From a virus: 31,718 nt of DNA. The stretch lies in IMG/VR virus record IMGVR_UViG_2547132060_000002, positions 1-31,718 of that record, one strand, 5' to 3'. The position numbers were made by a program, and so were the translations under genes. Below, piece after piece: positions 2,069 to 29,960 of the stretch (within the stretch, counting starts at the first letter, position 1; each line of letters opens with the position of its first letter). The notes below the pieces were generated by a model. It was not told the origin of the DNA. It saw only the letters and a list, made by a program, of their open reading frames with translations, and searched no databases.

Positions 2069-2236
2069 TTATTCTTTTTTTAATTTTAGCTGGATAATTT
2101 CTGGATTTTGAGGATCCCATTCCCAAATTACTTCCGCACGTTCAGAGATTTTCAATAAGTTTACAAACACTGAGGGGATTGTTGTAACAAGAGAAGCTCC
2201 CTGTGGTCTTACCTTAGTATTATATTGCATTTTCAT
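2069..2236 (-). CDS. AbrB/MazE/SpoVT-type DNA-binding protein, 55 aa (absent from the ORF track)
   Basis: MKMQYNTKVRPQGASLVTTIPSVFVNLLKISERAEVIWEWDPQNPEIIQLKLKKE fits the swapped-hairpin pattern KVxxxGxSLxxTIP...LxIxxxxxVxW; GAGGT RBS upstream on the minus strand. Confidence 0.82.
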   Translation of the reverse strand: MKMQYNTKVRPQGASLVTTIPSVFVNLLKISERAEVIWEWDPQNPEIIQLKLKKE

Positions 2237-2275
2237 AACCTCTTTTTTGTTGTTTTATGTATATATTTATGTGCT

Positions 2276-2394
2276 TTTATTATATATATTAGTTACTACT
2301 ATAATTACATAAAGGTTACATAATAGTAACATTTATATATTCTAAAGTTCAAGTATTAAATAGAAGTTGAACTTCAAGAGCGCCAAATCTTGAA
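2276..2394. promoter_or_regulatory. Divergent promoter/operator region (candidate lysis-lysogeny switch)
   Basis: TATA-like TTTATATA 2332-2339 (rightward) and TATATATA about 2281-2288 (leftward); between them GTTACTA/TAGTAAC inverted repeat (2292-2298, 2324-2330) and TTACATAA direct repeat (2305-2312, 2316-2323); AAGTTCAA/TTGAACTT inverted repeat (2345-2352, 2367-2374). Confidence 0.6.
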
Positions 2395-2431
2395 AAAAAA
2401 TACAACTTTAAAAAATCCAAATGTGATAAAA

Positions 2432-2587
2432 ATGACATATATCGTAGAAGAGATTGTCACTCCAGGTTACATTATTGACCGTGGAATATATGACAATCCA
2501 AAGGATGCCCAGTATCGGGCAATGGAAATCTTCGTAAATGAAGGTATTATTGAAGAAAATATTAAAATAAGGGAGGTTCCCTTATGA
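2432..2587 (+). CDS. Small hypothetical early protein
   Basis: First ORF of a translationally coupled chain; ATG 2432 preferred over TTG 2390. Confidence 0.65.
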   Translation: MTYIVEEIVTPGYIIDRGIYDNPKDAQYRAMEIFVNEGIIEENIKIREVPL

Positions 2588-2760
2588 ACGCATTCACTTT
2601 TAAAGGGGTTACTTATGAAGTGATCCCTAACGGTAATCATTTTACCGTAGTGAATGAAGATGGGTTCGCAATGGTAGGTGTCAAAAAGGAGTCTGATGCT
2701 GAAAAGGCTCTTAAAGAGCACGTCCTCCATTGTGAGGAATTATATAGGAGGAATCTATAA
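2584..2760 (+). CDS. Small hypothetical early protein, 58 aa (not in ORF track)
   Basis: ATGA overlap with the previous stop, GGAGG RBS; MNAFTFKGVTYEVIPNGNHFTVVNEDGFAMVGVKKESDAEKALKEHVLHCEELYRRNL. Confidence 0.7.
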   Translation: MNAFTFKGVTYEVIPNGNHFTVVNEDGFAMVGVKKESDAEKALKEHVLHCEELYRRNL

Positions 2761-2910
2761 ATGTCCTCTTTAACTATTTTTAAAGGAACTCCTTCTGAAA
2801 GGGAAGTCACTTCTGAAGAGGTAGAGAATCTTTATAAGCATGCTTTAGATGCTTTTGATGAATTAAATGTTTATAAAGAGGTCCATGAGAAATGGGGTGT
2901 TCAGTTATGA
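2761..2910 (+). CDS. Small hypothetical early protein, 49 aa (not in ORF track)
   Basis: Abuts the previous stop, GGAGG RBS; MSSLTIFKGTPSEREVTSEEVENLYKHALDAFDELNVYKEVHEKWGVQL. Confidence 0.65.
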   Translation: MSSLTIFKGTPSEREVTSEEVENLYKHALDAFDELNVYKEVHEKWGVQL

Positions 2911-3080
2911 GTTACAAATACAACAACTCAATGCACACTATAGAACCTGAAGAGGTTGATGTTTGCTTCGATGAATTTGAACAACTCCTCCTCAGTGAGG
3001 ATTATGAGTCACAAGAAGAACTCACCAATGAGCAAATGTTAGAATTTGCTCGGGCAGGAGATGAATATTATGGTGACTAG
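2907..3080 (+). CDS. Small, very acidic early protein
   Basis: ATGA overlap with the previous stop; 17 D/E versus 2 K/R in 57 aa. Confidence 0.7.
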   Translation: MSYKYNNSMHTIEPEEVDVCFDEFEQLLLSEDYESQEELTNEQMLEFARAGDEYYGD

Positions 3081-3393
3081 TGAAGAAATCACTAATATAT
3101 TCACTAGTCTGGGATATGGTGGATGTTTCAACATTTATGATATCCCTGGTGCTGGTACAAAAGCAGCATATGACACTCCATGTGGGAGCATCGCTTTCAC
3201 AAGGGAATTAAACAAGTATGATGCTTGTGTGAAACATATGAGGCACACTACCAGCATTGTGGTGTTTAACTGGGATTATATTGGAAAAGCAGCTTTGAAA
3301 CTCTTAAACAAAACTTTCCGTTGTTTTTCTGGAGTACCATATGAAAGGAAAACATATTCATGGGAAGAATGGGGTGAAGCATGTATCGCATAA
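3070..3393 (+). CDS. Hypothetical protein
   Basis: ORF in the coupled chain; ATG 3070 preferred over 3046. Confidence 0.7.
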   Translation: MVTSEEITNIFTSLGYGGCFNIYDIPGAGTKAAYDTPCGSIAFTRELNKYDACVKHMRHTTSIVVFNWDYIGKAALKLLNKTFRCFSGVPYERKTYSWEEWGEACIA

Positions 3394-3587
3394 TCCTTTC
3401 ACTCCTTTCTTTTTTTGGAGGACATAAATCATCTCCTGTAAGATTGTATCCGAAACAATCTTTCAGGGAGAAATATGAAGCTGAATTAATATTAGGTGCA
3501 GGGGCAATGGTGATAATATTATTATTCCTCTTTGCATTCCTTGTAGTAGGGCCTATGGATCCTTACACTAACGGAGGGTTAGTATGA
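3381..3587 (+). CDS. Small membrane protein
   Basis: Hydrophobic segment LILGAGAMVIILLFLFAFLVVG; GGGGTGA RBS. Confidence 0.7.
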   Translation: MYRIILSLLSFFGGHKSSPVRLYPKQSFREKYEAELILGAGAMVIILLFLFAFLVVGPMDPYTNGGLV

Positions 3588-3639
3588 ATTATGATCAGCA
3601 AACAGGTTTTACAATCATGCCTTAAAAATTGTTGAAAAA

Positions 3640-3882
3640 ATGGGTGGAGATATTTCTGCCCACGGAAAATTACAAGAGGGTGTTTTCTTATCTGTAAGTG
3701 TGAATCATGACCGCACTTATGAGAAAACACGTGATATTATGGAGGCCTTACAGGAACTGTATGGGGGTGAAATCCAGTATTATGAATACTGGGTGTCAAA
3801 AGGTTTCATTCCACATAGTCAGGCCTCTTTGGAGAATATTGATGAAAACAAAGTATTGGAGATTATTGAGGAGGAATTTTAA
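3640..3882 (+). CDS. Hypothetical protein (true start possibly 3584 across a frameshift)
   Basis: Open frame from 3595; coupled to the next gene by TAATG overlap. Confidence 0.65.
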   Translation: MGGDISAHGKLQEGVFLSVSVNHDRTYEKTRDIMEALQELYGGEIQYYEYWVSKGFIPHSQASLENIDENKVLEIIEEEF

Positions 3883-9690: not shown

Positions 9691-9723
9691 TTTTCTAATT
9701 GCTCACAGTATATTATGAAGGAG
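9691..9723. repeat. 33-bp dispersed repeat, copy 1
   Basis: TTTTCTAATTGCTCACAGTATATTATGAAGGAG; 30/33 identical to 18711-18743. Confidence 0.9.
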
Positions 9724-9816
9724 GGTTTAAAAAAAAATATTTTTTTTAAAGGGAAAAATAGTTGTATTTTTTTTGTCATATTGTCATTTTGTTAAAAAAT
9801 ATCACATTAAATAAGC

Positions 9817-11358: not shown

Positions 11359-12839
11359 TTGCAACAAAACCAGAACAAGAACAATTTCATGGTCCTATGG
11401 GTATAGGTCGATGGAGTGTCTATATTAACGATGGTTTCTGGAAGCCGAGGAATTTTGATGTATTAATTATTGAATTGTTGCAATATGCTTTGCAAGGCAG
11501 AGTATCAAAGATATTACTGGGGGTCCCGTCCAGACATGGGAAATCTACATTAATTTCAAAAAACTTTGCTTCTTATTTTTTAGCACATTTCCCAAATGAT
11601 AAAATCATTTTAAGCTCATATTCACAAGGCTTAGCAAGTGAATTTGGGGGGCAAGTAAAAAATGTAATAAACCATTATGGATACCTATCGCCTTACAATG
11701 TAAAATTAGCTACAGATAGTAAAGCTAAAAACAAATTCAACATTGACCATCCATACAGAGGACAAATGTTGGCTGTAGGTGCTGGTGGAGCAATACTTGG
11801 TTTTGGTGCAGGATTATTCATAGTTGATGATCCTATTAAAAATATTGCTGATGCAGAAAGTAAAGTCCTGCAACCAAAACTTCGGGACTGGTTCGAATCT
11901 ACTGCAAAAAGCAGATTAGAAAAAAGAAGTAATGGTTTACCACCAATAATGATTGTAATTGCACAAAGATTACATTTAAATGATTTACATGGAATTATCC
12001 GTAAAATAGAACCAACCATCACAGCTAATGAAGCATTCACTATTTTAAGAAATGGTGGAAGTATTGACCCTAATGTATGGGTTGATTTGAATATTCCAGC
12101 AATATGTACAAATCCAGAAACCGACCTGTTAGGAAGAAAATTAAATGATGTATTATGGGATGAACAAAGAGATTACAATTGGTTAATGGCCGAAAAAAAA
12201 TCAATGGGTAGCTATTTATTCAATGCAATATATCAAGGCGAACCACAGGAAAGAGATGGAAACATCTTTAAACGAGAATGGTTTGAAGACCCTGTTACTG
12301 GCAGATTAACCTGCACCATACCAGCACAACAAGTACCCGAAGATTTGCCTGAATTAAGGTATTGGGATTTTGGTGCTAGTGGTGATGATGGAGATGCAAC
12401 TGCAGGAATGAAAACAAGTTATGATGGTGAATATATGTACGTCCTGGATCTTGTTAATGGAAAGTTCACCAGTCGGGATGTTTTAAAATATTTCATGCAA
12501 ACCGCAAAAAATGACGGTAAGGCCTGCCGTATCAAAATAGAACAAGAACCTGGAGCGGGAAGTAAAACATTAATACAGAAATTCCGTCAGGAGAAAGAAT
12601 TAAAAGGTTACCATATTCGGGGGGATAAAGTGAAAACAGCTAAAAATATTAGGAGTTTTGAATTAGAAGCATTAGCAGAAGACCGTAAAATATTACTTGT
12701 TCAGGCACCTTGGAATCAATTATTAATAGATCAATTAGTTTCTTTCACTGGAAAAGATGGCGGAACAGATGATATTGTAGATGCTTGCACAGGTTCTGCT
12801 AGACATTGGAAACGTCCAAGAAGGAGAATTAGAGTATGA
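11355..12839 (+). CDS. terL: Terminase large subunit
   Basis: Walker A VPSRHGKST, Walker B FIVDDP, RNase H-like nuclease YWDFG...IEQE...DDIVDA. Confidence 0.96.
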   Translation: MIATKPEQEQFHGPMGIGRWSVYINDGFWKPRNFDVLIIELLQYALQGRVSKILLGVPSRHGKSTLISKNFASYFLAHFPNDKIILSSYSQGLASEFGGQVKNVINHYGYLSPYNVKLATDSKAKNKFNIDHPYRGQMLAVGAGGAILGFGAGLFIVDDPIKNIADAESKVLQPKLRDWFESTAKSRLEKRSNGLPPIMIVIAQRLHLNDLHGIIRKIEPTITANEAFTILRNGGSIDPNVWVDLNIPAICTNPETDLLGRKLNDVLWDEQRDYNWLMAEKKSMGSYLFNAIYQGEPQERDGNIFKREWFEDPVTGRLTCTIPAQQVPEDLPELRYWDFGASGDDGDATAGMKTSYDGEYMYVLDLVNGKFTSRDVLKYFMQTAKNDGKACRIKIEQEPGAGSKTLIQKFRQEKELKGYHIRGDKVKTAKNIRSFELEALAEDRKILLVQAPWNQLLIDQLVSFTGKDGGTDDIVDACTGSARHWKRPRRRIRV

Positions 12840-14464
12840 AGAAAAATAATCGAAAAAGTGAAAGTTTCATAGTCACCGACACTGGAGAATGGGTAGACAG
12901 CACAATACTAGAAGAATACAAAATATCAGCAAAAGCAGACATGGATGCTGATGGAAGTAAACAAGTACATGAAGAAGACTGGGCATATGGAGATTATATT
13001 CTTGCACCGAAATATGATCCCAAAAAATTAATTGATGTACTTGATTTGAACAGTTATCATAGAAATTGTGTAGATGTAGTTGCCCGTGACAGTTCAGGAT
13101 TAAATTACAGTTTCCAACCAAAAGAAGAAGGAAATGAAGAAATATTTGATAATCCTCTTGTTGAAGAATTTTTGGATAATATTAAGCCATCTATTAATAC
13201 TTTATTATATCTGCGAATGTTTGACCGTAGAGCAATAGGTTACGGGGCTATTGAAGTTATACGTGAGAATACTAGTGACTCTCAGGTAATAAACTTAACA
13301 CATATTCCAGCACATACTCTCCGCCGTGCAGCGGATGGGTATCGTGTACAGCAAAAAATAGGTACAAAAACCGTCTGGTTTGTCATATATGGTGGAACAT
13401 ACTATGGCGAACAGGTAGATGTGCATGCAGACACAGGTGAAATCTATGAATACAATACTTTACCTGAAAAAGAAAAAGCAAATGAATTACTCTGGACACA
13501 GGAATATGCTCCTGGAACTAATTATTATGGAAGACCTCCTATTGTAGGTTCATTAGCTGCAGTAGCAGGAGATTTGTCCCGTGCAAGATACAATAACAGT
13601 TTCTTCAAAAACTACGGTATGCCTACATTTGCAGTAACAATCACAGGAGATTTTGCAGATTACGAAAAAGACCCTGAAGATGAAGATTACGACCCAACTA
13701 AAACTTTAAAATATCAAATTAACCAACAATTGCAACAAGTTATCCGAAACCCTCATTCTGCAATGTGTATTACAATCCCTTCCGAAGGAGAAGAAGGAAA
13801 TGTGGATATTAATATACAACCTTTAAGTGTTGAGCAAAGAGAAGCAGATTTCCGTTTATTCCGTACAGATAATCGTGATGAAGTCATACACTCACATCGT
13901 GTAGACCCATCCAGGATTGGAATGTATGATAGTGGAAATCTCAATGGAACTAATGCAAAACAAACTGATAAATCATACACAGTCAGTACAATTGCTCCAA
14001 TCAAAGCAGAAAACGAGTATGATATTAACACATTATTAAAAAATGAATTTGATTTAACGGATTGGAAATTTGTACTTTCTGATATGGATCCTAAAGATTT
14101 TACAAGAGATATTGATGTTATTGAGAAATTGTTTAATATGGCTTCAATCACACCAAATCAGATTATTAAACTTGTTGGAGATAAATTCGGTTTAAGTCAG
14201 GTCACAGATAATGCTTATCTTGATGAATATTACTTGAATGGTGTTCCTTTAGACCAGGTTTGGCAACAAGCAGCACAAAATAATACGGAATATGCAGATT
14301 CAGTATTAAATGCGTTAAATGATGAAATAGTGGGGGAGGCTACAAAGTATGATGAAACAGAAGAGTCTGGAGAATATGGCTTGGATGTCCAGTACAGCAC
14401 AAAAGCAGATACAACATTTTCAGACAAAATCAGACGAATTATCACTAGCAGAATCAAAACTTAA
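12836..14464 (+). CDS. Portal protein (PBSX/HK97 phage_portal type)
   Basis: Follows TerL; HIPAHTLR, YYGRPPI, YNNSFFKNYGMP, HRVDP..IG, ITPNQI motifs. Confidence 0.93.
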   Translation: MKKNNRKSESFIVTDTGEWVDSTILEEYKISAKADMDADGSKQVHEEDWAYGDYILAPKYDPKKLIDVLDLNSYHRNCVDVVARDSSGLNYSFQPKEEGNEEIFDNPLVEEFLDNIKPSINTLLYLRMFDRRAIGYGAIEVIRENTSDSQVINLTHIPAHTLRRAADGYRVQQKIGTKTVWFVIYGGTYYGEQVDVHADTGEIYEYNTLPEKEKANELLWTQEYAPGTNYYGRPPIVGSLAAVAGDLSRARYNNSFFKNYGMPTFAVTITGDFADYEKDPEDEDYDPTKTLKYQINQQLQQVIRNPHSAMCITIPSEGEEGNVDINIQPLSVEQREADFRLFRTDNRDEVIHSHRVDPSRIGMYDSGNLNGTNAKQTDKSYTVSTIAPIKAENEYDINTLLKNEFDLTDWKFVLSDMDPKDFTRDIDVIEKLFNMASITPNQIIKLVGDKFGLSQVTDNAYLDEYYLNGVPLDQVWQQAAQNNTEYADSVLNALNDEIVGEATKYDETEESGEYGLDVQYSTKADTTFSDKIRRIITSRIKT

Positions 14465-17400
14465 ATTGAAAGTATCGCTCATTTTTCAGAAAATGCAGGA
14501 TAATATTTTCAAAAATTTACGGGAGTATTATCAGCCAACCGTTTTATTTCAAGCTCATGTGGATCTTATTTTGGAACCTATCCATGAATTGCATAAATTG
14601 TATTATGATAATGTTCTTGAGTCTAAACAATTCATATACCAGAAAGGGTATGAGTTAGCAGAGTTAGAAGTGTTGAATAAAATACAAGAACATGTGAGTA
14701 TGAAAAGTGACACTTCACCCATATTTCATCCAGAAGATTTAAGCAGTCTTTTAGAAAAAGACCAATTGTTTGGTACAAGTAAATCTGCAGCAGCGAAACT
14801 TGAAAAAGACACTTTCAATGCTTCACAAAAAACCCTAACAAGAGTAGATAAAGACATAAACAACATTCTAGTTGATTCTTATCAGGAAGGAGTAGGGTAT
14901 AAAGAAGTTGGAAGACGATTAACTAAAAAATTTAATCAACTGAAAACTTTTGAAGCTGAAAGAATAGCTAGAACAGAAACACATTCTGCACATGAATTAG
15001 GAACAATGCAAGCATTTGAAGATTTGGATGTTGAATATTTGCAATGGGATGCCCATTTAGATAATCGTGTACGTGAAACACATGAAGAAATCAATGGTGA
15101 AATCATACCCTTAGGGGGAACTTTTAGTAATGGTTTAAAGTATCCAGGGGATAAAAATGGCCCAATTAAAGAATGGATTAATTGTAGGTGCCATGGTGTG
15201 CCGTATATTTTGCCTCCTGGGGCTATTGCTCCTAATATGCCGTATTTCCGTGAAAGTGATTTAATAATAGTTGAGAAATATACTCCCTTAAATTTTGAAA
15301 ACAAACTGGATAATTCACATACATTAAATGTATCCGAATCTGAACTTCAAGAATTTATTATAAATGGTGAAAAGATTTCTTATGATGATATTAAACCATT
15401 TATGATTAAAAATTGGGAAAAAACAGCAGAATATGATAAAAAATATGAAAAATTATTGGATTCAGCAAATAAAAAAGATTTGAAACATGGAACTCATTTA
15501 GAAGATGAATATAAATTCACAGAAGAGATAATATCTAGTTATCATTATGATTATGATTATGAAAGTTTTAATGAATGGGAGGATATAAAAAAAGAGTTAA
15601 TCCAAGATATATTAGAAAATAAAGGTACAAAAAATAGTTGGAAGATAATTGAACAACATGTCCAGAAACCATTTGATATTAATAGATTATCTCTTTCAAA
15701 ACAAAGAGAGTTTGCATTTTACCAAATGAAAAAAGAAACAGGTACATTGTCTAAATCTCAATCAAAAATATTTTCTGAATTGAAAAAATTAGCTAAAAAT
15801 AAAAGATATCATATTGAAATGAATAAATTAGATTTAGGTGATCCATCACAAAATCTTATAGTTGGGAAAGAATGGTATGCGAAAGTAAAATGTAAAGATT
15901 GGCATTTTGTTGTAGAGTTTGGAGAAGATGTATTAGATGATGTTTCATACAATCAAATACAAACAATAATACAAGAAGAACTACCTTTAAAAATTGGGCA
16001 AAGTATAAATAAATTAGTTATTAGTAATAAACAGCCTAAAGTATTGATGAATGGAGGATATGTTCGTGTTGGAGGATGGCAAGATTCTACAAATGGAAAA
16101 ATTGTTACCTTTTTAGAGCATCCAAACAATTCTGATTATGATTGGGCGATAGATAGATTAAAAACTACCTTGGTACATGAAGGAATGCATAACATTGATT
16201 ATGTTAATACAACTATTTTTGATTTAGAAGCCGACAAATATGTTCAAATATCAAGATTTGGAGCAATTTCTAATTCTAAAGCATATGTTGATGCTGTAAG
16301 AACGGATAATTTTCTTAGGCGTACTGGAGCTATAAAAATTACAGAAAGGCCAGAAACTGGAGCGATTAGAACAGTAAATCCACAAAGTAGGGATAAAATA
16401 TGGGTGTCAGAGTATGCTGAAGGATATGCAAAAGGAAGATATGGTGAGGATTATCTAACTCATCCAGCATCAGAAGATTTAGCAGAATCTGGAGCAACTT
16501 ATTTTGCGAATAAAGAGTGGTTCAGACAAAATTTCCCAACGAGATATGAAGTAATAGATAAAGTTTTAAATTCTGAAGGAAGAGAAGTTATTGATGAATT
16601 AGCTACTCAACAATCAGATTATAAATTTTTAAAATCAAATGCATTAACAAAAACAAAAAATAGAGTAACTAAATATTTCTCAAAATCAAGCACTCCTAAA
16701 GAACATGATAAATTTAAATTAACATCATCGCAAGAACGAAACTACAAAAAATTATCAATTAGAAAAGAATCATTAGGATTTTTAGATAAGAGAAAACTTG
16801 AAAAATTAGAAAATCAGGTAAAATTCAACACATTACATAATAAAAAATTAGCATCAAATTTAAGTTATGAAGAGAATAAACAATATAAACAATTATATAA
16901 TCAATTTAGAAAAGAATTTAATCTTCCAGAATTAAAATCAAGTGAAAGAAATATTTTTAATGATTTATTAAACAGAGAATCTAAAAGAACTCAAAACAAG
17001 TTTGAAAAACATCTTGAAAAACTTAAGAACACAAAGGAATTCAAAACTGATGGAAAAACATTTATTAATTTTGCAAAAGATTCGGATGATAAAATAATTA
17101 TTCAAGTAAATCTTCAAAATTTAAATAAAAAACAAAAAGAGATATTAAATAAATGGTCTGCAGATATTGATATTTATTTAAAAGATTGGTGTCATAAATC
17201 TACAAATCCCAATTATTTAGAAAAATATGTATCTAAAAAAATTACATATGAAGAATGTGATAAATTAGGTAAAGAATTAACAAATTTAATTGAATCACTA
17301 TCTACTGAACAAACACTACAAGAAAACACAATCTTGTGGAGAGGTATTGGGATGAAAGATGAAAGAATGGATTTAAGTAACTTTGTTGTAGGTGAAAAAA

Positions 17401-17660
17401 GGAAATTTGGTGAATTTACTAGTACTTCATTTGATTTAGATACTGCAGAATCATTTGCAATGTATACTGATGATGATGAATTTGCAGGGTATATTCTCAA
17501 AATCCATGCTCCAAAAGGAACAAAAGGGGGAGCTATTGATGGTGAGAGAATAGGTAATGCTGGAACTGAATATGAATATTTATTAAGTAAAAATCAAGAA
17601 TATATTACATTAAATGTAGATGAAAATTTAAGAATAATTGATATCTTGTTGGTGAATTAA
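14349..17660 (+). CDS. MuF (SPP1 gp7 / Mu gpF) head morphogenesis protein fused to a zincin metallopeptidase and a C-terminal ADP-ribosyltransferase (start may be 14376)
   Basis: MuF: AERIARTE, WDAHLDNRVRETH, GLKYPGD..GP..EWINCRC. Peptidase: HEGMH (aa 610-614), SEYA...EDLAE (E709). ART: WRG (R998), STS (1025-1027), EYE (1074-1076). Confidence 0.9.
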   Translation: MMKQKSLENMAWMSSTAQKQIQHFQTKSDELSLAESKLKLKVSLIFQKMQDNIFKNLREYYQPTVLFQAHVDLILEPIHELHKLYYDNVLESKQFIYQKGYELAELEVLNKIQEHVSMKSDTSPIFHPEDLSSLLEKDQLFGTSKSAAAKLEKDTFNASQKTLTRVDKDINNILVDSYQEGVGYKEVGRRLTKKFNQLKTFEAERIARTETHSAHELGTMQAFEDLDVEYLQWDAHLDNRVRETHEEINGEIIPLGGTFSNGLKYPGDKNGPIKEWINCRCHGVPYILPPGAIAPNMPYFRESDLIIVEKYTPLNFENKLDNSHTLNVSESELQEFIINGEKISYDDIKPFMIKNWEKTAEYDKKYEKLLDSANKKDLKHGTHLEDEYKFTEEIISSYHYDYDYESFNEWEDIKKELIQDILENKGTKNSWKIIEQHVQKPFDINRLSLSKQREFAFYQMKKETGTLSKSQSKIFSELKKLAKNKRYHIEMNKLDLGDPSQNLIVGKEWYAKVKCKDWHFVVEFGEDVLDDVSYNQIQTIIQEELPLKIGQSINKLVISNKQPKVLMNGGYVRVGGWQDSTNGKIVTFLEHPNNSDYDWAIDRLKTTLVHEGMHNIDYVNTTIFDLEADKYVQISRFGAISNSKAYVDAVRTDNFLRRTGAIKITERPETGAIRTVNPQSRDKIWVSEYAEGYAKGRYGEDYLTHPASEDLAESGATYFANKEWFRQNFPTRYEVIDKVLNSEGREVIDELATQQSDYKFLKSNALTKTKNRVTKYFSKSSTPKEHDKFKLTSSQERNYKKLSIRKESLGFLDKRKLEKLENQVKFNTLHNKKLASNLSYEENKQYKQLYNQFRKEFNLPELKSSERNIFNDLLNRESKRTQNKFEKHLEKLKNTKEFKTDGKTFINFAKDSDDKIIIQVNLQNLNKKQKEILNKWSADIDIYLKDWCHKSTNPNYLEKYVSKKITYEECDKLGKELTNLIESLSTEQTLQENTILWRGIGMKDERMDLSNFVVGEKRKFGEFTSTSFDLDTAESFAMYTDDDEFAGYILKIHAPKGTKGGAIDGERIGNAGTEYEYLLSKNQEYITLNVDENLRIIDILLVN

Positions 17661-18059
17661 ATGGAAAATTTGAAGTCAAAATATATTGATTTGTCATTTG
17701 TGAATCAAAAAAAAGAAGAATTAATTAATATACCTGATTTTTTACCATGGGGGATTTCTTTACAATTTAAAGATAATCCTACTAGATTAAAAATTATTGA
17801 AGAAAATAATTTAAAAAGGGTATATGTATTAAAACATGTGAAACGTAATGAGTATGTTAAAATGCATAAAACTGATTTTTTCTTTCATGCTGAAGAATTA
17901 GTGAGGTTTGTTGAAAAGTATCCTCAATTTAAAGGAGTTCTCAAAGAAGAATTACTAAATAAAGATATCATAAACTATGAATCAATAACTGGTAGGAGTT
18001 TATTGGAGATTTTCAACAAAGAAGGTAAATACTTTGAAGATAAAATATATAATAAATAA
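17661..18059 (+). CDS. Hypothetical protein, candidate immunity/antitoxin
   Basis: Start abuts the ART-domain stop; 132 aa; function inferred from position only. Confidence 0.7.
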   Translation: MENLKSKYIDLSFVNQKKEELINIPDFLPWGISLQFKDNPTRLKIIEENNLKRVYVLKHVKRNEYVKMHKTDFFFHAEELVRFVEKYPQFKGVLKEELLNKDIINYESITGRSLLEIFNKEGKYFEDKIYNK

Positions 18060-18072
18060 GAGGTGAGGTGAA

Positions 18073-18324
18073 ATGTCATTAATTACTTTATGGCAAAAAC
18101 CTATTGAAGAATATGTATTGCCTGATGGAAGCTTTGTTTGTATCACATATTATAATGGACTCAGAGAAGGGAAAGCAGTTGATAGATTTCATGCAAGATA
18201 TAGGGAAATTAAACAATATTTTGGTGATGAGTTAATAGATATTATTGTAGAAAAAAATCCTTATTATGATCCAAAATATTTTGATTCATTACAACAACAC
18301 ATTGAAGGGGGTTTTGATTTATGA
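18073..18324 (+). CDS. Small hypothetical protein, candidate immunity
   Basis: GAGGTGAGGTGA RBS; paralog of the next gene. Confidence 0.7.
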   Translation: MSLITLWQKPIEEYVLPDGSFVCITYYNGLREGKAVDRFHARYREIKQYFGDELIDIIVEKNPYYDPKYFDSLQQHIEGGFDL

Positions 18325-18633
18325 GTAAACCATATATTCCTTATGAAGAAATATCTGAAAAAATACCTTTACCTAAAGAGAAATATTTATTGATTAAATA
18401 TTACGCGGATTTGGAACTCAAACATCCAACGAATAGATTTTGTGACAAAATATAGAGAAATAAATGTTTGTAAAAATCATCCTAGCTCCTTGGCACAGAG
18501 AATTGTTATATTAAGTAGTAAATTTGAAGAAAATCCTTTTTATGATCCTACTTTTTTTGAGAAGTTGAAAAGTTATCAGGAAAAAAGATTTAAAGAGCTT
18601 CAAAATTCAAATATGAAATTTAATTTCTTTTAA
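18321..18633 (+). pseudogene. Frameshifted paralog of 18073-18324 (103 aa if one T of TTTT 18438-18441 is removed)
   Basis: ATGA-coupled 44-aa ORF (18321-18455) plus the 18442-18633 ORF align ungapped with the upstream gene across the junction (LP-x8-YY-x10-RF-x3-YREI), then share NP[YF]YDP. Confidence 0.75.
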
Positions 18634-18710: not shown

Positions 18711-18743
18711 TTTTCTAATTGCTCACGGTATAGTATGAAGAAG
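18711..18743. repeat. 33-bp dispersed repeat, copy 2
   Basis: TTTTCTAATTGCTCACGGTATAGTATGAAGAAG, preceded by G7. Confidence 0.9.
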
Positions 18744-19095
18744 ACCCTCAAAAAAATGTTTTTTTTATTTATTCTATATGGATGAAATAATAAAATATTA
18801 AGAAGATTTAACGTCTATGCACTTTTAAAACATTTTATATGAGTTCTCAACATAGCTTATCCATTTATTTACAAGTATTTATTACATCGGTACATTAAAA
18901 CATTAAAAACCAGTTTTTTTTATTGTTGATGCATTTTTTATTACCTCCGATTTTTTTAGTTAAAGAATTAAGGAATATGAAACACGGATCCATAAAAAAA
19001 GGAATATCATAACATGCTTTTTGAGGGAGCTTCTTCCACTATTTATTTTTATCATTTTTACTTATTTTAATCCAAAAATATGGGGTGTATTTTAA

Positions 19096-20148
19096 ATTGT
19101 AAACCAAAAACACCAATCTGACCATCCAGTCTTAGTCACAGCACCAGTTCTCGTACCTAACATGCCTGACTGTGATTATGGGCGTGGAGAAGAACCGTTA
19201 TCAGAAGAAAAAATAAAACACCTAGCCCACACCTTCCTGAAATATGGAGTAATTGAAAAACGCCACGAATCCCTGCAAACTCGTCAAAAAGTGGGGCATG
19301 TAGTGGAATCATATTTGTTACCTGCACCAGCTAGTATTAAAGGAATTGATGGGAAAACAAGGCAGTATCCTAAAGGTACATGGATTGTTACTGCTGAAAT
19401 AACTGACGAACAAACCATCGCAGAAACACAAAAAGGAGTTTTCACAGGATTTTCTGCAACTACAATACCTAAAGAAGTTGCAGACAATGTTAGTTTTAAA
19501 TCTAGTCAATGCTTACTTATCAAAGATATTCCAAATCCTGTGGGTTTTGCTGTAAGTCTTGTTGAAAAACCATGTGTGCATTCAGCGAAGTTTTGTAAAT
19601 TGAAACACTCACAAAACGAGGAATCAAACATGAATGAAGAAGATAAACAATTTTTAAACAAATTAAAAGATGTTTTTAGTTTTAAAAGTGATGATTCAAG
19701 AGCCATCACTCAGGATGAATTAGATGAAACACTTGCTAGTTTTAAATCTGATTTTAAATCAGAGATTATTGCAGGAGTTACTCAAGGTGTAGCTCAAGCA
19801 GTAAAAGAAGCTTTAGCAACACCAACAAAGAAAAAAAATAAAAAAACTGATGGGGACAACGGAGATGATGAAGGTGAAGAAGTAGATGAAAACAACACTA
19901 CTTCTAAAAACAATACTTCAAGTACTCCTGCAGATGAAGAAGGTGAAGAAGTAGATGAAAACAACACTACTACTGAATCTAACAATAATTCTGCTACTAA
20001 TAAAAAGAAAAAAACCAAAAAACCACCAGCATCAACAAAAGGAAACAAAATCCATGACGGACCTCAACCAGTTTCCTACAAATCAGACACTCAAACCGTC
20101 TATGAGATAATGGGCCGTAACAACAGAGGCTCAAGAATACAAGAATAA
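19096..20148 (+). CDS. XkdF-like prohead protease fused to an acidic scaffolding region (ORF track start 19162; likely start about 19096)
   Basis: VTAPVLVP..PD, HESL...VGHVVESY, YPKGTWIV, GVFTGFS, VSLVEKPC motifs; upstream of MCP. Confidence 0.82.
   Translation: MVNQKHQSDHPVLVTAPVLVPNMPDCDYGRGEEPLSEEKIKHLAHTFLKYGVIEKRHESLQTRQKVGHVVESYLLPAPASIKGIDGKTRQYPKGTWIVTAEITDEQTIAETQKGVFTGFSATTIPKEVADNVSFKSSQCLLIKDIPNPVGFAVSLVEKPCVHSAKFCKLKHSQNEESNMNEEDKQFLNKLKDVFSFKSDDSRAITQDELDETLASFKSDFKSEIIAGVTQGVAQAVKEALATPTKKKNKKTDGDNGDDEGEEVDENNTTSKNNTSSTPADEEGEEVDENNTTTESNNNSATNKKKKTKKPPASTKGNKIHDGPQPVSYKSDTQTVYEIMGRNNRGSRIQE
19870..19971 (+). repeat. 33-bp perfect direct repeat in the scaffold linker
   Basis: GAAGGTGAAGAAGTAGATGAAAACAACACTACT at 19870-19902 and 19939-19971 (EGEEVDENNTT x2). 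Confidence 0.9.
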
Positions 20149-24848: not shown

Positions 24849-27800
24849 ATGGTATCAGACAATCTCGTGAACATAATCATCAAAATACAAGATGAAGCAA
24901 GTAAAGTTTCACAAAAAGTAGAAGAACAAATGAGCAAACTAGGTGACACAAGCAGAAATGCAATGAACATTTGGTCAAGAGCAGCAGAACAAGTATCACA
25001 ATCAATGGATACAGTTCACAAAGCATTAGACCGAACACGAGAAAAATTCCAAACTTTAAAAAACAAAGGAGCAGATGCCTTTAACATGATAAAAAATGGA
25101 GTTAATTCTGCTGCAACTAGTTTTAACAATTTGATATCAAAATCCAACACTGCAACATTGATGATGGAAAAAATCAAAAGTGTTGGAGAGCGTGTGAAAA
25201 ACACTTTAAACACTATTAAATTACCTTCAAGCTTACAATCAAGCATTTCAAGTGTAACACAAAAATTTGAAACATTAAAAGGTTATGCAGGCAATGCTGC
25301 TGAAAGTATTAAAAATCATTTTACAAGTGCTGCTAGTGCATTATCACAAAAATTCGAAACAGCTAGTAATAGTATTAAAAATCATTTTGAATCTTTAAAA
25401 GGTCATGCACAAATATTAGGCAACCAAATCAACACCACATTAGGCTCAGCTTTTGACAAAGTAGCTTCAAAAGTAACTACTGTATCTTCAACTATCAAAA
25501 CAAAATTATCATCAGCAGTAGACACCGTAAAAGGAAAAGTAGGCCAATTAGCACAAAGTTTTCAAGGAATGGGAGGATTAGTTTCATCATTATTCGGAGC
25601 TTTAGGAATGGCGGGAATAGGTCAATTAACTGTCGGTTTAGCAATGACAAGAGAGCAAATGACTAACTTAATGGGGGCTACTATGGGCAGTACTCAAGCT
25701 GCTAAAAGTTTTGTAGGTGTTATGGACAAAATGACAAATAATTCATTAGTATCTCTCAATGACTTGGGAACTGCTATGAACACTATCAAAATGTCTACAG
25801 GAATGACAAATGATCAAATGAAATCTTTTGTAACTACTGTAAATGATGTAGGTCAAAGAGCAATCCTTATGGGAAAAGATTCTACTGAAGCAATGACCTT
25901 GATGCAAGCAGCAGGTGCTGGACTAAATGGGGAATTTGATATTCTTAAATCTAATTTTGGTATCACAAAAGATAAATTAACTGCTCTTGGTTGGAGTGGG
26001 GCCGCAGATGATGTTAAAGGATATCAGGAAGCATTAGATAAAGCTTTGGCTGCTGGGGGGAATATGGATGATATGATGAACACCACTACTGGTTTAATAA
26101 AACAAGTAGAAAAAGGATTCACATCTGCAGGAAGACAAATAGGTGAAGTATTCGCTCCATTTATTCGTGAAGCTTTACAAGGCATGATTAGCTTAAAAGA
26201 ATCCTCTCCAGAAGTTTACAAGATTTTAATTTTGATTGCAGGAGCAATTAGTTTATTTGCAACTGCTGCACCTTCAATATCTCCAATTTTAAGCACATTT
26301 ACAACATTAACAAGTATTCTTGGAGTTTCCTCTGGGGCATTACTTGGTATTGCAGGATTGCTGATTGTAGTTGGTTTGGCGGTGTATGAAGCAGGTAAAC
26401 AGTTTGGATGGTGGAATAATGCCACCGAAATGATTGGGGCTGTGGCTGATGGAGTACGTCGTTTATGGGAAGCATTTAGTAATTCTCCACAAGTAAAAAT
26501 TCTTATAAATGATATTAAAACAGCATTTCAAGCAGTATTGCTCGTTGTTGGAGCATTAATCTCTCCATTGGGAATGGTTTTGAATCGTAATGATAATGGA
26601 ACAATAGATATTGTATCAAGCATTATTGGATTTTTCAAAGCATACGGTGAAGTTCTCATAAGAATTGGCGAAATATTCGCAGGTTTAATCATTATATGGA
26701 AAACAGGTGCTGCAATATTATATACTTATAGGACAGTTACTGGAATATTTCAGGCATTAAGTGGGCAAATGACTACTTTAACTTCAACTGCTCAAAAAGT
26801 AGTGAATGCTGTGAACAACCTGAAAGGAAAATTACAGCAAATTAAAGGTGGATTTGACACTTTAAAAAATGCAATTACTAATGCAAAAACCACTCTTGTT
26901 AATTTTAAAACGAAATTATCAAATTGGGTTACATCAGGTATTGATTTAGTCAAAGCCAAGTTTGTTGCTCTTAAAGACAAAATAATTCTAGCAAAAACAA
27001 AACTGTTAGAATTGTGGGCTACTATGAAAGCTACAGCTGCTGAAAAAATAGCCGCATTATCCACAAAGTTCAAAACATTAGCAGCAAGCATCAGCCTTGC
27101 AGGAATCAAAGCAAAATTATATGCTGCTTATCAATGGTTAGTGAATGCTGCTACTGCAGTATGGAATGTATTATTATCAATGAATCCCGTAATGCTAATT
27201 GTTATAGCAATTATAGCATTAATTGCAGCATTAGTATATTTGTATAATACAAATGAAACTGTTAGGAATGCGATTAATGGTTTATGGGAAGGCATGCAAC
27301 AATTAGGCCAATATATTTATAATGGTTTGATTCAAGCATGGGATGCTCTTGTAAGTGCATTACAAGGAGTTGCTAGTTTCCTTGATGGATATATTGGTAA
27401 TGCTATTCGTGGAATTATTGCATTATTAAGTGGTGATACTCAGGGAGCATTACAATACTTCACCAGTGCATGGAACACATTAATGGACGCATTAGGTCCT
27501 GTTGGTGATTTCATACAAGGAATATTCTCACCAATAATTCAAGGATTAATGGATTTATTAAGTGGAAATGGGGATGTTAATCCAGTTGAAAGCATTACTC
27601 AAGGATTCCTTTCACTTATGGAGGCATTAGGTCCTGTTGGGGATTTCATAATGGCAGTATTTGCTCCAGCATGGCAACTTGTACTTGATATTGTAACTCC
27701 ATTATTCAATTTATTCATGCAACTGGCAACAATTTTTAGCCAGTTGATTACTGGTCAAATAAGTCTTCAACAAGCAATTGCTTGGGCTTGGGCAGCTATT

Positions 27801-29960
27801 CAATCAACAATCAGCACAATATTATCAAATGTGATTAATCGTGTTGTTAGTTGGGCTCAGTCAATGTGGAATAATGCAGTTAATACTGGTAGAAACTTCC
27901 TTACAGGAGTAGTTCAATTTATCCGACAATTACCTGATAAAATAAAAATGTATCTTTTAGCAGTTGCTGTAAGAGTAATAACTGCTGGTGCTCAATGGGT
28001 AAGTAATGCTAAAACAAAAGCATCACAAGTAGTATCTGGAGTAATGTCATGGATAAAGCAATTACCTCAAAAAGTATACCAAGAATTCATGAATATTGGT
28101 TCAAGAATATTGTCTGCAGGTTCACAATTAGTTGAAAAAGCAAAACAAATTGGTAAAAAAATTGTAGATGGAATGCTTTCAGCTATGGGTATTCATTCAC
28201 CAGGTACAATCCAAGAAAGCGTTGTACTCGAATTTGTAAACATGATTACTCGTGTGAAAGATCAAGCTCGTAGTGCTGGTGAAGCAGTGAAAAATGTTGC
28301 TCAAAATATGATTGATTCCTATAAAAAACAAAATCTTGATAAGGAATTAACTGCACCTGATTTGGTGAATGCTCAAGGAGGTTTCCTTGGTGATCCACTT
28401 GTAGGTACTGCTTTAGATGAGTATGATACTACTCATATTGGTCAGGAAATGGATGTTACTCCTACTATGAATATGGGTGAAAATAATCAAATAATGGATA
28501 ATTATGCATTAATGGGTCAAAATGTTACTGGTATCTTTGATTTGATGAGTACAGATTCAACTAATGCTTTAAACAGTTTGACTTCTGCAAATACTTTAGC
28601 TTATGACACTATAAGTGCTACTGAACAGCAGAAAATGAATTTCATGAGCAATCATATCAGAAATAGTATGAATCAAATCTTGTTAAACACTCGTATGGGT
28701 ATGAATAATGCTTTAAATACTACTCGTACAAGTTTGACAAATATGCAAAACAGTACTACTCGAACTACTCAGGCTATGACTCGTGCTTGGAATACTATGA
28801 AAACTAGTATAATTGCAGCTGCGAATAAAATTAAAACTGATGCAACAGCCCACTTCAATAAATTAAGCAGTACTATCGGAACATTCTACCGCAAACTCCA
28901 AAATCCAAGCAATTGGGGTGCGGGAGGAGGCACAGGTACCCCCTCAAGTGTTCGCAGAGTAGGACATCGCACAGGAACAATGAAAAAAATAAGGGACATT
29001 ATGCGGGAAGAAAAACTTCCTTCAGCAATGACTTATTACCAAGCGAGAAACTCAGCATACAATAATCCAGCAATTGGAGATTATATAATCCGTGATTCCA
29101 CTACTGGAAAAATACCTACTGCAGATTTAATCCGTAGCAAACTTGAAGGGGCTGCGGGAAGCTGGGGAGATACAGTTGCACCTAATGTAAATCACATTAA
29201 AAAGACAGCTGGAAAATGGGATATGAAAGGACCAGCAATAAAAACTGGTGCTGGAATAGCTCAAACTGGATTAGCATTTAAAGTTCGTGATTTTGAAACT
29301 GGAACACCAAACATTAGTTTTGACTCCTTTGTAAAAATGGCAGAAGCAGTATTCAGCATAGTACCCTACGATCATTATTATGATAGTGAAAAATATGGGT
29401 CCTGGCAAAATGCTATTGCTGCTGGAAAATGTAATTGTAGTGATGGAGCAGATGCATTATTAGCCTTAGCTGCAACCTGTGGATTTAGTGGCAGTAAAGT
29501 TCATGGATATTGGGGTAAAGAAGGTCACTTTTGGACAGAAATCAACGGTAAACATATGGATACAACAGCATTCCAAAAAGGTTATGGTTGGAGCAGTCCA
29601 AAAACACATGCTGGACCATCAAGTGTCGGGCATCGTGCTGGAAGAGCCTCTCCAAACAGTTTGCTTGAAGATTTTGATGTTGTTAAAGAATTAAACAAAA
29701 ACAATAATGAATCCAATAAAACGGAAACTAATGAAGAAAACCAAATAATCATCGTATTATCTGGTGAAACAAAACTCAAACACGAGTTCATCGATTTACC
29801 AGACACAGTTTCAGAAGAGGAAATTGTAAGGTTAATAAATGAAGCACCTGAAGATGCAGGTTGGTTAAAATCATTAGTGCAAAATATGGATTTCCAGGAA
29901 TTGGATCGTAAAATTAAATCTAAATTACAATTCCGTGAAAATCGTGCACAAGGAGTATAA
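24849..29960 (+). CDS. Tape measure protein with C-terminal transglutaminase-like Cys-His-Asp peptidase domain
   Basis: 1703 aa, helical repeats with W/F periodicity; NCSD (C1530), GHFW (H1560), MDTT (D1571). Confidence 0.9.
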   Translation: MVSDNLVNIIIKIQDEASKVSQKVEEQMSKLGDTSRNAMNIWSRAAEQVSQSMDTVHKALDRTREKFQTLKNKGADAFNMIKNGVNSAATSFNNLISKSNTATLMMEKIKSVGERVKNTLNTIKLPSSLQSSISSVTQKFETLKGYAGNAAESIKNHFTSAASALSQKFETASNSIKNHFESLKGHAQILGNQINTTLGSAFDKVASKVTTVSSTIKTKLSSAVDTVKGKVGQLAQSFQGMGGLVSSLFGALGMAGIGQLTVGLAMTREQMTNLMGATMGSTQAAKSFVGVMDKMTNNSLVSLNDLGTAMNTIKMSTGMTNDQMKSFVTTVNDVGQRAILMGKDSTEAMTLMQAAGAGLNGEFDILKSNFGITKDKLTALGWSGAADDVKGYQEALDKALAAGGNMDDMMNTTTGLIKQVEKGFTSAGRQIGEVFAPFIREALQGMISLKESSPEVYKILILIAGAISLFATAAPSISPILSTFTTLTSILGVSSGALLGIAGLLIVVGLAVYEAGKQFGWWNNATEMIGAVADGVRRLWEAFSNSPQVKILINDIKTAFQAVLLVVGALISPLGMVLNRNDNGTIDIVSSIIGFFKAYGEVLIRIGEIFAGLIIIWKTGAAILYTYRTVTGIFQALSGQMTTLTSTAQKVVNAVNNLKGKLQQIKGGFDTLKNAITNAKTTLVNFKTKLSNWVTSGIDLVKAKFVALKDKIILAKTKLLELWATMKATAAEKIAALSTKFKTLAASISLAGIKAKLYAAYQWLVNAATAVWNVLLSMNPVMLIVIAIIALIAALVYLYNTNETVRNAINGLWEGMQQLGQYIYNGLIQAWDALVSALQGVASFLDGYIGNAIRGIIALLSGDTQGALQYFTSAWNTLMDALGPVGDFIQGIFSPIIQGLMDLLSGNGDVNPVESITQGFLSLMEALGPVGDFIMAVFAPAWQLVLDIVTPLFNLFMQLATIFSQLITGQISLQQAIAWAWAAIQSTISTILSNVINRVVSWAQSMWNNAVNTGRNFLTGVVQFIRQLPDKIKMYLLAVAVRVITAGAQWVSNAKTKASQVVSGVMSWIKQLPQKVYQEFMNIGSRILSAGSQLVEKAKQIGKKIVDGMLSAMGIHSPGTIQESVVLEFVNMITRVKDQARSAGEAVKNVAQNMIDSYKKQNLDKELTAPDLVNAQGGFLGDPLVGTALDEYDTTHIGQEMDVTPTMNMGENNQIMDNYALMGQNVTGIFDLMSTDSTNALNSLTSANTLAYDTISATEQQKMNFMSNHIRNSMNQILLNTRMGMNNALNTTRTSLTNMQNSTTRTTQAMTRAWNTMKTSIIAAANKIKTDATAHFNKLSSTIGTFYRKLQNPSNWGAGGGTGTPSSVRRVGHRTGTMKKIRDIMREEKLPSAMTYYQARNSAYNNPAIGDYIIRDSTTGKIPTADLIRSKLEGAAGSWGDTVAPNVNHIKKTAGKWDMKGPAIKTGAGIAQTGLAFKVRDFETGTPNISFDSFVKMAEAVFSIVPYDHYYDSEKYGSWQNAIAAGKCNCSDGADALLALAATCGFSGSKVHGYWGKEGHFWTEINGKHMDTTAFQKGYGWSSPKTHAGPSSVGHRAGRASPNSLLEDFDVVKELNKNNNESNKTETNEENQIIIVLSGETKLKHEFIDLPDTVSEEEIVRLINEAPEDAGWLKSLVQNMDFQELDRKIKSKLQFRENRAQGV

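Follow-up and report, generated by a model that had tools for sequence, protein, structure and literature searches.

Polymorphic toxins built on a MuF head domain are known from temperate bacteriophages (Jamet et al. 2017, PMC5576092). Those tested include the Bxa-Bsi/BAH (PMC11699363) and Apk2-Tis1/Aph1 (PMC10083569) systems and also the EFV toxin, and MuF toxins with more than one immunity gene are known. A second class, known from both phages and conjugative elements, is that of the polyvalent proteins (Iyer, Burroughs, Anand, de Souza and Aravind 2017, PMC5512222), which join several unrelated enzymatic domains in one virion-associated polypeptide. Both have so far been described and tested only in bacteria. 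Here, we have analysed a fusion gene from an archaeal provirus, the IMG/VR record IMGVR_UViG_2547132060_000002, of which positions 1 to 31,718 (31,718 nucleotides [nt]) are called the window. The gene (14349..17660, + strand) is an open frame for 1103 amino acids (aa) that comprise a MuF head domain, a linker, a zincin metallopeptidase, a basic linker and an ADP-ribosyltransferase (ART), and it is followed by three small genes. We consider it likely that the locus encodes a polymorphic MuF toxin, probably virion-delivered, with two effectors that each have their own probable immunity protein.

The locus shares with bacterial MuF toxins the N-terminal MuF domain, the variable C-terminal toxin domains, among which ART and metallopeptidase are both common, and the small open reading frames (ORFs) directly downstream. 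As in the family delimited by Jamet et al. 2017, the gene lies within the DNA-packaging module of a temperate tailed provirus, variable C-terminal domains are found on a shared N-terminal domain, and a small ORF (<150 aa) directly downstream is absent after short MuF genes (the MuF-only loci L014, L015 and L017 had no small ORFs ahead of the protease gene). The bacterial host that also enters that definition is replaced here by an archaeal one. The surveys covered bacteria, without mention of archaea, and this part of the definition reflects the sampling of the family, not its mechanism. Unlike the described MuF toxins, one protein carries two effectors with a partner family each, the partner families (named A, B and C below) are new and lack Pfam domains, a junction motif (FRExDL) is defined here and a chromosomal orphan copy of a partner gene is present.

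Zincin, ART and MuF are hub domains of the polyvalent proteins, and the window protein likewise holds at least two unrelated effector domains, a zincin among them, in one polypeptide whose gene neighbours that of the portal. For the polyvalent-protein metallopeptidases, too, profile search has provided a link to lethal factor (PMC5512222). The same study reported polyvalent proteins to show a "particular paucity" in archaea, with almost all those above 1000 aa being bacterial, whereas relatives of one Methanobrevibacter virus group provided at least 121 long MuF clusters. The locus further departs from the polyvalent class as described in having cognate immunity-like genes. An earlier note on this DNA, written from the letters alone, had been aware of no characterised system with two tandem effectors. 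This was only partly right, as multi-effector polyvalent proteins are described in bacteria (PMC5512222) and 19 of the 121 clusters combine MuF, zincin and ART.

The T4 Alt protein, an R-S-E ART packaged in the capsid, is injected along with the DNA and acts on the host RNA polymerase and other proteins by modifying them; its sequence relation to the window ART is marginal (a weak, partial match to PHROG 832 "RNA polymerase ADP-ribosylase," E = 4e-4). Alt carries a short N-terminal capsid-targeting sequence, not a MuF fusion, belongs to a virulent phage and has no known immunity gene. Lethal factor, the Pro-Pro endopeptidases (PPEP, MEROPS M34) and Certhrax have the zincin fold and the HExxH...Y...ExxAE signature in common with the window protein. 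The latter differs from them in its sequence (11-19% identity, no Pfam match), domain order and delivery route, and it has no protective-antigen-binding or secretion module. Both Certhrax and lethal factor combine a lethal-factor-type domain and a VIP2-type ART fold in one chain.

What was known are the MuF toxins and the polyvalent proteins, in bacteria; what is new is the archaeal host, the partner families, the one-domain-one-partner modularity and the host-captured partner gene. In the literature, in a coverage that excludes the 2023 methanogen-virus compendium, we came across no account of MuF-ART or MuF-zincin toxins from archaea, and the MSTV1 paper makes no mention of such fusions.

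Two enzymatic domains and their probable partner genes

The C-terminal domain (aa 928-1103, 17130..17657, +) is a C3/VIP2-type R-S-ExE ART. When aa 930-1103 were scanned alone, Pfam ADPrib_exo_Tox (PF03496) matched with 36.8 bits, above its gathering score of 23.4 (E = 3e-9). In the PDB, a profile built on eight relatives retrieved Lmo0066, Certhrax, VIP2 and C3 (E = 1e-9 to 3e-3), and R998, E1074 and E1076 were invariant in 8/8 diverse relatives. The ART is probably specific for arginine, since it carries the ExE motif, for which this acceptor is established in C2, iota, VIP2 and Alt. Between the zincin and the ART lies a Lys/Arg-rich linker (aa 747-927, 16587..17129, +; K+R 23%) that had no family match and was 30-37% conserved in ART-carrying relatives (BLASTP against related cargo).

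The middle domain (aa 484-746, 15798..16586, +) is a lethal-factor/PPEP-like gluzincin. Its site consists of H610-E-x-x-H614 (HEGMH, aa 610-614), Y689 and E709-x-x-A-E713 (E709 within SEDLAES), and H610, E611, H614, Y689 and E709 were invariant across relatives of 18-36% identity, as were R998, E1074 and E1076 of the ART. Single sequences searched against the PDB with phmmer were uninformative (aa 300-1103 gave noise only and the ART alone gave nothing), so profiles were needed. The 40-sequence zincin profile had two Bacteroides-type zinc hydrolases as its top PDB matches (about 2e-7), followed by lethal factor (3.6e-5) and Pro-Pro endopeptidase (3.8e-4). The profile alignment placed HExxH and Y...S-E-D-F-A-E opposite the HEFGH and Y...E-F-F-A-E of lethal factor. 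With the AlphaFold2 (AF2) model of the domain (pLDDT 82.5), Foldseek ranked lethal factor first (probability 1.00). In VIA comparisons, the model matched residues 581-776 (domain IV) of lethal factor with Z = 10.4 and a root-mean-square deviation (rmsd) of 4.0 over 167 residues, PPEP-1 with Z = 9.1 (rmsd 3.2 over 150 residues) and the N-domain of Certhrax with Z = 9.3.

The M34-type features are present in this domain (HExxH, a downstream Glu as third zinc ligand, a catalytic Tyr and the shared fold); we have not filed it as an M34 member because no curated family model matches. Aa 520-760 found no Pfam family at E<=10, and among 48 zincin relatives five matched, with Peptidase_Mx1 or Peptidase_Mx only. 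Pfam scans also gave no match for the linkers or the small proteins. The complete zincin site and the intact R-S-E ART (R998, S1025-T-S1027, E1074-Y-E1076) announced in the earlier note were both borne out. All the residues it named are at the positions it gave, and each motif occurs once in the cargo.

The small genes begin at the very end of the fusion gene. A family-A gene (P0002, 17661..18059, +; 132 aa), whose ATG directly follows the TAA of the fusion gene, encodes the probable ART partner. It is followed by a family-C gene with a strong ribosome-binding site (P0003, 18073..18324, +; 83 aa), the product of which is the probable zincin partner. The third gene (18321..18633, +) starts at an ATGA overlap at 18321 and aligns as a second family-C paralogue of P0003; it is intact, with 103 aa, in L002, L063 and L064, but in the window its frame is disrupted at 18445 by an extra A, which is either a fresh pseudogene mutation or a sequencing error of the record. 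A slip in the T4 run was rejected as the cause of the frameshift, because the window differs from the intact relatives by this A. Three small co-oriented genes at the stop had been proposed beforehand and were confirmed, except that the third is not a separate ORF. The frame first seen (18442-18633), read as an independent 63-aa GTG gene, was rejected, being the 3' part of the 103-aa gene, of which L002 and L063 have an intact copy.

The assignment of both genes to their families was obtained by clustering and with hidden Markov models (HMMs): a family-A HMM built without the window gene found P0002 (E = 4.6e-5), and a family-C HMM built from L008 and L050 found P0003 (E = 2e-4). Other loci contain a third family, B. 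We regard families A, B and C as new candidate immunity families. Family A counts 115 clusters in a large database, none of them (0/115) with a Pfam domain, and its named members are Methanobrevibacter or archaeon records only. A relatives search with a 3-sequence family-A alignment returned near-identical copies only, and the ESM Atlas held no usable neighbour for P0002.

We have typed 11 non-redundant modules, one of them without an ART, using custom HMMs. Family A was directly downstream in 10/10 ART modules and absent in the one without ART (L025). Family B or C was present in 8/8 zincin modules, and neither was found in the 3/3 modules without zincin (Fisher p about 0.006). The similarity among family-A proteins closely followed that among the ARTs (Mantel r = 0.96, p about 1e-4), and the similarity among family-B/C proteins followed that among the zincins (r = 0.89, p about 1e-4), whereas MuF and family-A similarity were not correlated (r = 0.16, p = 0.17). 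Zincins of type 1 (window, L008, L050 and L055) occurred only with family C and those of type 2 (L007, L025, L048 and L049) only with family B.

The two kinds of pair, ART/family A and zincin/family B or C, assort independently. Both L007 and L050 have a beta-type ART with family A-beta, but the former combines it with a type-2 zincin and family B and the latter with a type-1 zincin and family C. L004 carries two ARTs and a two-domain family-A protein. In L025 the zincin is the sole cargo and family B its only partner, and the zincin is thus not merely an ART helper. In the window, the partners follow in the reverse order of the domains, that is, A for the ART and then C for the zincin.

Exchange of cassettes and orphan partner genes

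The MuF/SPP1-gp7-type minor head domain (aa 1-306, 14349..15266, +) ends with FRESDLI. The motif F-R-E-x-D-L-[IV] was found 18-19 aa past INCRC in 116 of 118 long relatives, and MuF-only relatives end 4-14 aa beyond it. The motif marks the point of fusion between MuF and cargo. VENN and PxxxxDPxGL are comparable fusion-point markers in other polymorphic toxins.

The earlier note had suggested asking whether cargo and downstream genes swap together, and the comparison of L004 and L055 with the window revealed that they do. Starting in the terminase region, both loci share 97% identity with the window as far as 15265/15266, which corresponds to codon 306, just past FRESDLI, and this identity resumes at 18628 (L004) and 18712 (L055). 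Between these breakpoints they are unrelated to the window at the DNA level. The L004 cassette encodes two ART domains and has one downstream gene of 207 aa; that of L055 encodes a different zincin and a different ART and has two downstream genes, of 124 and 166 aa. The blastn breakpoints against L004, L055 and L052 delimit an exchangeable cassette of cargo plus three small genes (15267..18627, +). Furthermore, the window and L002 (99.3% identical) differ by 38 single-nucleotide polymorphisms (SNPs) in 12726-14999, which covers the portal and the 5' part of MuF, but by only two SNPs and one indel in 15000-18497, with the cargo and small genes. This drop in SNP density suggests that the cassette was exchanged more recently than the flanks diverged.

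At least seven different cargoes are carried, in the protein database, by MuF domains that share 93% identity or more with that of the window. These alleles are zincin plus ART (1055 aa), ART only (687 aa), two ARTs (1095 aa), an ART in a protein of 805 aa, other zincin plus ART combinations (1021 and 1221 aa) and an undefined cargo (839 aa). Such fusions are common within the virus group as a whole, where the 121 long MuF clusters divided into 38 MuF-ART, 30 MuF-zincin, 19 MuF-zincin-ART, 3 MuF-ART-ART and 31 others. The order MuF-zincin-ART was observed in all 19 clusters with both enzymes, and MuF-ART-zincin never. Several contigs (P0007, P0008, L063 and L064) have an in-frame deletion of the zincin (aa ~387-756), the ends of which coincide with TATAAATT microhomologies at window 15507-15520 and 16611-16624.

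Orphan modules, consisting of an ART 3' end and family A with or without family C, were also found. A cellular chromosome holds a 474-nt piece, 96.8% identical to window 17599-18071, which comprises the last 62 nt of the ART gene and the whole P0002 gene. It lies between rubrerythrin and M50-peptidase genes, and the insert (L054:5932-6448; also in L056-L058, L067 and L068) is flanked by the 36-nt direct repeat TTTTTAAACATATTAACAGAAATGTGAAATTATGAC. This orphan locus was present in at least 19 contigs, with a family-A gene of 132, 107, 98 or 76 aa; in many strains a 299-nt deletion removes the second 36-nt repeat and the 3' half of the gene. In L061 and L062, arrays of a 40-aa ART 3' fragment, family A and family C lie downstream of an unrelated MuF cargo, an arrangement that represents the displaced-module pattern of polymorphic toxin loci.

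Some other arrangements were seen among the related loci. L051:5956-12776 (Methanobrevibacter) contains two tandem MuF-cargo genes (934 and 715 aa); each of them has an ART at its end and a family-A gene behind it. In L005:411-1523, the ART domain and the P0002 gene are present in decayed form, with frameshifts in both and no MuF part, and the opposite strand next to them (2187-3821) encodes another MuF-cargo protein. In L059 and L060, an M78 peptidase/DUF4411 pair lies between the cassette and the protease gene.

Proposed mechanism and alternative explanations

In the mechanism that we favour, the MuF domain (aa 1-306) would place one or a few copies of the protein at the portal inside the capsid, as SPP1 gp7 suggests, and the fusion protein would leave the capsid with the DNA at infection, packaging and injection being modelled on SPP1 gp7 and T4 Alt. 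The cargo beyond FRESDLI comprises two enzymes with complete catalytic sites, a zinc endopeptidase and an ART. Family A (17661-18059) would be the partner of the ART, and family C (18073-18324 and the broken paralogue) that of the zincin. Most likely, the partner proteins bind to the enzymes and keep them silent, both in the producer cell until packaging and in superinfected lysogens. Recombination at the MuF/cargo junction and just past the last small gene swaps whole effector-partner cassettes. The small proteins are most likely immunity proteins, their neutralising role being suggested by comparative genomics and, from bacteria, by the precedents of Bxa-Bsi/BAH and Apk2-Tis1/Aph1. It is probable that the zincin is an independent effector, because it can be the sole cargo (L025, and 30/121 clusters) and has a co-varying partner.

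Several observations weigh against this mechanism. Translation of the small genes is coupled to that of late structural genes, and superinfection immunity would need expression in the lysogen. The viruses with the zincin deletion retain all three small genes, both family-C genes included. The chromosomal orphan is shortened in many strains (76, 98 and 107 aa), so selection on it is not constant. Neither family A nor family C matches a known fold or family; AF2 modelled P0002 poorly (pLDDT 58), and a wide VIA search with this model gave nothing above Z 4.6. As for the co-variation, the sample is small (11 modules, a single one without ART), and neighbours within a cassette share their history, so some correlated similarity is expected. 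The MuF control and the independent assortment of the pairs reduce this last concern and do not remove it.

We have weighed these results against other explanations. The zincin could be a cis-acting processing protease that frees the ART or other cargo from MuF after packaging or injection, with family C or B as its inhibitor until then. A processing role was indeed proposed for the metallopeptidases of polyvalent proteins by Iyer et al. (PMC5512222), and the order MuF-zincin-ART, without exception in 19 clusters, as well as the long flexible linkers on both sides of the zincin, would suit it. Against this, in 38 clusters there is an ART but no zincin, in 30 the zincin is the only recognised cargo, and L025 offers its zincin and family B nothing to release. 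The natural in-frame loss of the zincin persists in several contigs, and a dedicated co-varying partner suits a harmful enzyme at least equally well. On balance, we think that this role is unlikely. It is still less probable that the small proteins are chaperones or adaptors for cargo folding or procapsid loading instead of immunity proteins. Dedicated chaperones would be expected to show the same domain-specific co-variation and could well be co-transcribed and translationally coupled with the late genes, as the small genes are, and full-length MuF toxins can need stabilising (PMC10083569). Yet a chromosomal copy without its toxin and displaced orphan arrays typify immunity genes and would be useless to a chaperone, and where partners of MuF toxins have been tested, they were immunity proteins (PMC11699363, PMC10083569).

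Both effector domains have as their closest solved relatives exotoxins acting on eukaryotic proteins, and the gut provides a precedent in Bxa, a MuF-ART of a Bacteroides prophage (PMC11699363; PMC10083569). The enzymes might hence act outside the archaeal cytoplasm, on neighbouring microbes or animal-host cells after lysis, as has been reported of Bxa. We hold this to be very improbable: Pfam scans found no secretion or cell-entry module in the protein, the cognate partner genes and the archaeal chromosomal orphan point to a target inside archaeal cells, and Bxa is toxic to bacteria as well and requires immunity (PMC11699363).

Returning to the virion-delivered toxin with paired immunity proteins, a wider picture can be put forward tentatively, although we would not call it the expected outcome. 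The viruses of the main human-gut methanogen may run a capsid-borne polymorphic toxin-immunity system in which independent pairs are shuffled at FRExDL and a host-captured antidote, the chromosomal P0002 copy, disarms the injected ART as a defence against viruses or superinfection. If true, no earlier arms race of virion-delivered toxins and immunity would have been described in Archaea. With at least seven cargo alleles in one lineage and more than 100 long MuF clusters in the wider group, effectors carried by virions seem to form a major layer in the conflicts of viruses with their hosts and with one another, in the methanogens that dominate human and ruminant guts. The archaeal transcription and translation machinery is eukaryote-like, which makes the targets of an arginine-ART and a lethal-factor-like protease a testable question, and the one-domain-one-partner pattern is a natural experiment on the assembly of multi-effector toxins.

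The virus, its gene neighbourhood and host

The window is a provirus record with the gene layout of a tailed virus. An integrase gene (1-1155) marks the provirus, and an ERF recombinase gene, followed by those of the small and large terminase (TerS and TerL), precedes the portal gene (12836-14464). Downstream of the cassette come the S78/XkdF prohead protease gene (19162-20148), the major capsid protein gene and the tail genes, with a tape measure of 1703 aa (24849-29960). The order in the packaging module is TerS, TerL, portal, MuF fusion gene, prohead protease and major capsid protein.

For the fusion gene, a Shine-Dalgarno-type site, GGGGGAGG, lies ahead of the start at 14349. A start at M49 (14493), as in the database twin, was rejected, as no ribosome-binding site is found there and the 48 aa ahead of it are still conserved in relatives that are 36% identical. 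The identical database protein, P0005, represents 88 member sequences, and the fusion protein matches a PHROG of its own (6577) over its full length. That the first ~300 aa are a MuF head protein, as had been anticipated, was confirmed by matches to Pfam Phage_Mu_F (PF04233, aa 169-282, E = 3e-13) and NCBIfam TIGR01641 (SPP1 gp7, E = 2e-12); the NCBIfam scan gave no match besides the SPP1-gp7 domain.

The host is Methanobrevibacter, a gut methanogen, which agrees with the archaeal virus suspected from the DNA letters. A tblastn search of 50,697 GenBank phages gave Methanobacterium virus Drs3 as the nearest phage MuF; the MuF part alone was matched, with no homologue of the cargo among these phages. 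By genome matches, the related loci are Methanobrevibacter metagenome-assembled genomes (MAGs) from roe deer, goat and rumen, and the named homologues, whether of the MuF protein or the first small gene, are all Methanobrevibacter or "archaeon" records. M. smithii tailed virus 1 had a short DNA match to the window. One 3-kb contig, L052 (CAAETG010000222.1), is binned in a "Bacilli bacterium" MAG carries an L004-type cargo and has 99.4% identity to window 15087-15266; its bacterial bin is most likely a binning error and does not indicate a bacterial host.

PADLOC returned zero matches among the proteins. Near the C-terminus of the tape measure (aa 1492-1581), there was a weak match to a transglutaminase core (E = 2.8e-4). 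The gene at 29967-31718 encodes Big_1/Big_3 Ig-like repeats, which are typical of adhesin-like tail proteins of gut methanogen viruses. A 56-nt direct repeat with 80% identity between its copies was found at window 9691-9746 and 18711-18766, in both cases in AT-rich intergenic gaps, one copy being ahead of the late region and the other just after the cassette. It reads TTTTCTAATTGCTCAC.GTATA.TATGAAG..., followed by an A-run and a T-run. The repeat is also present in L004 and L055 and may be a late promoter, operator or terminator element.

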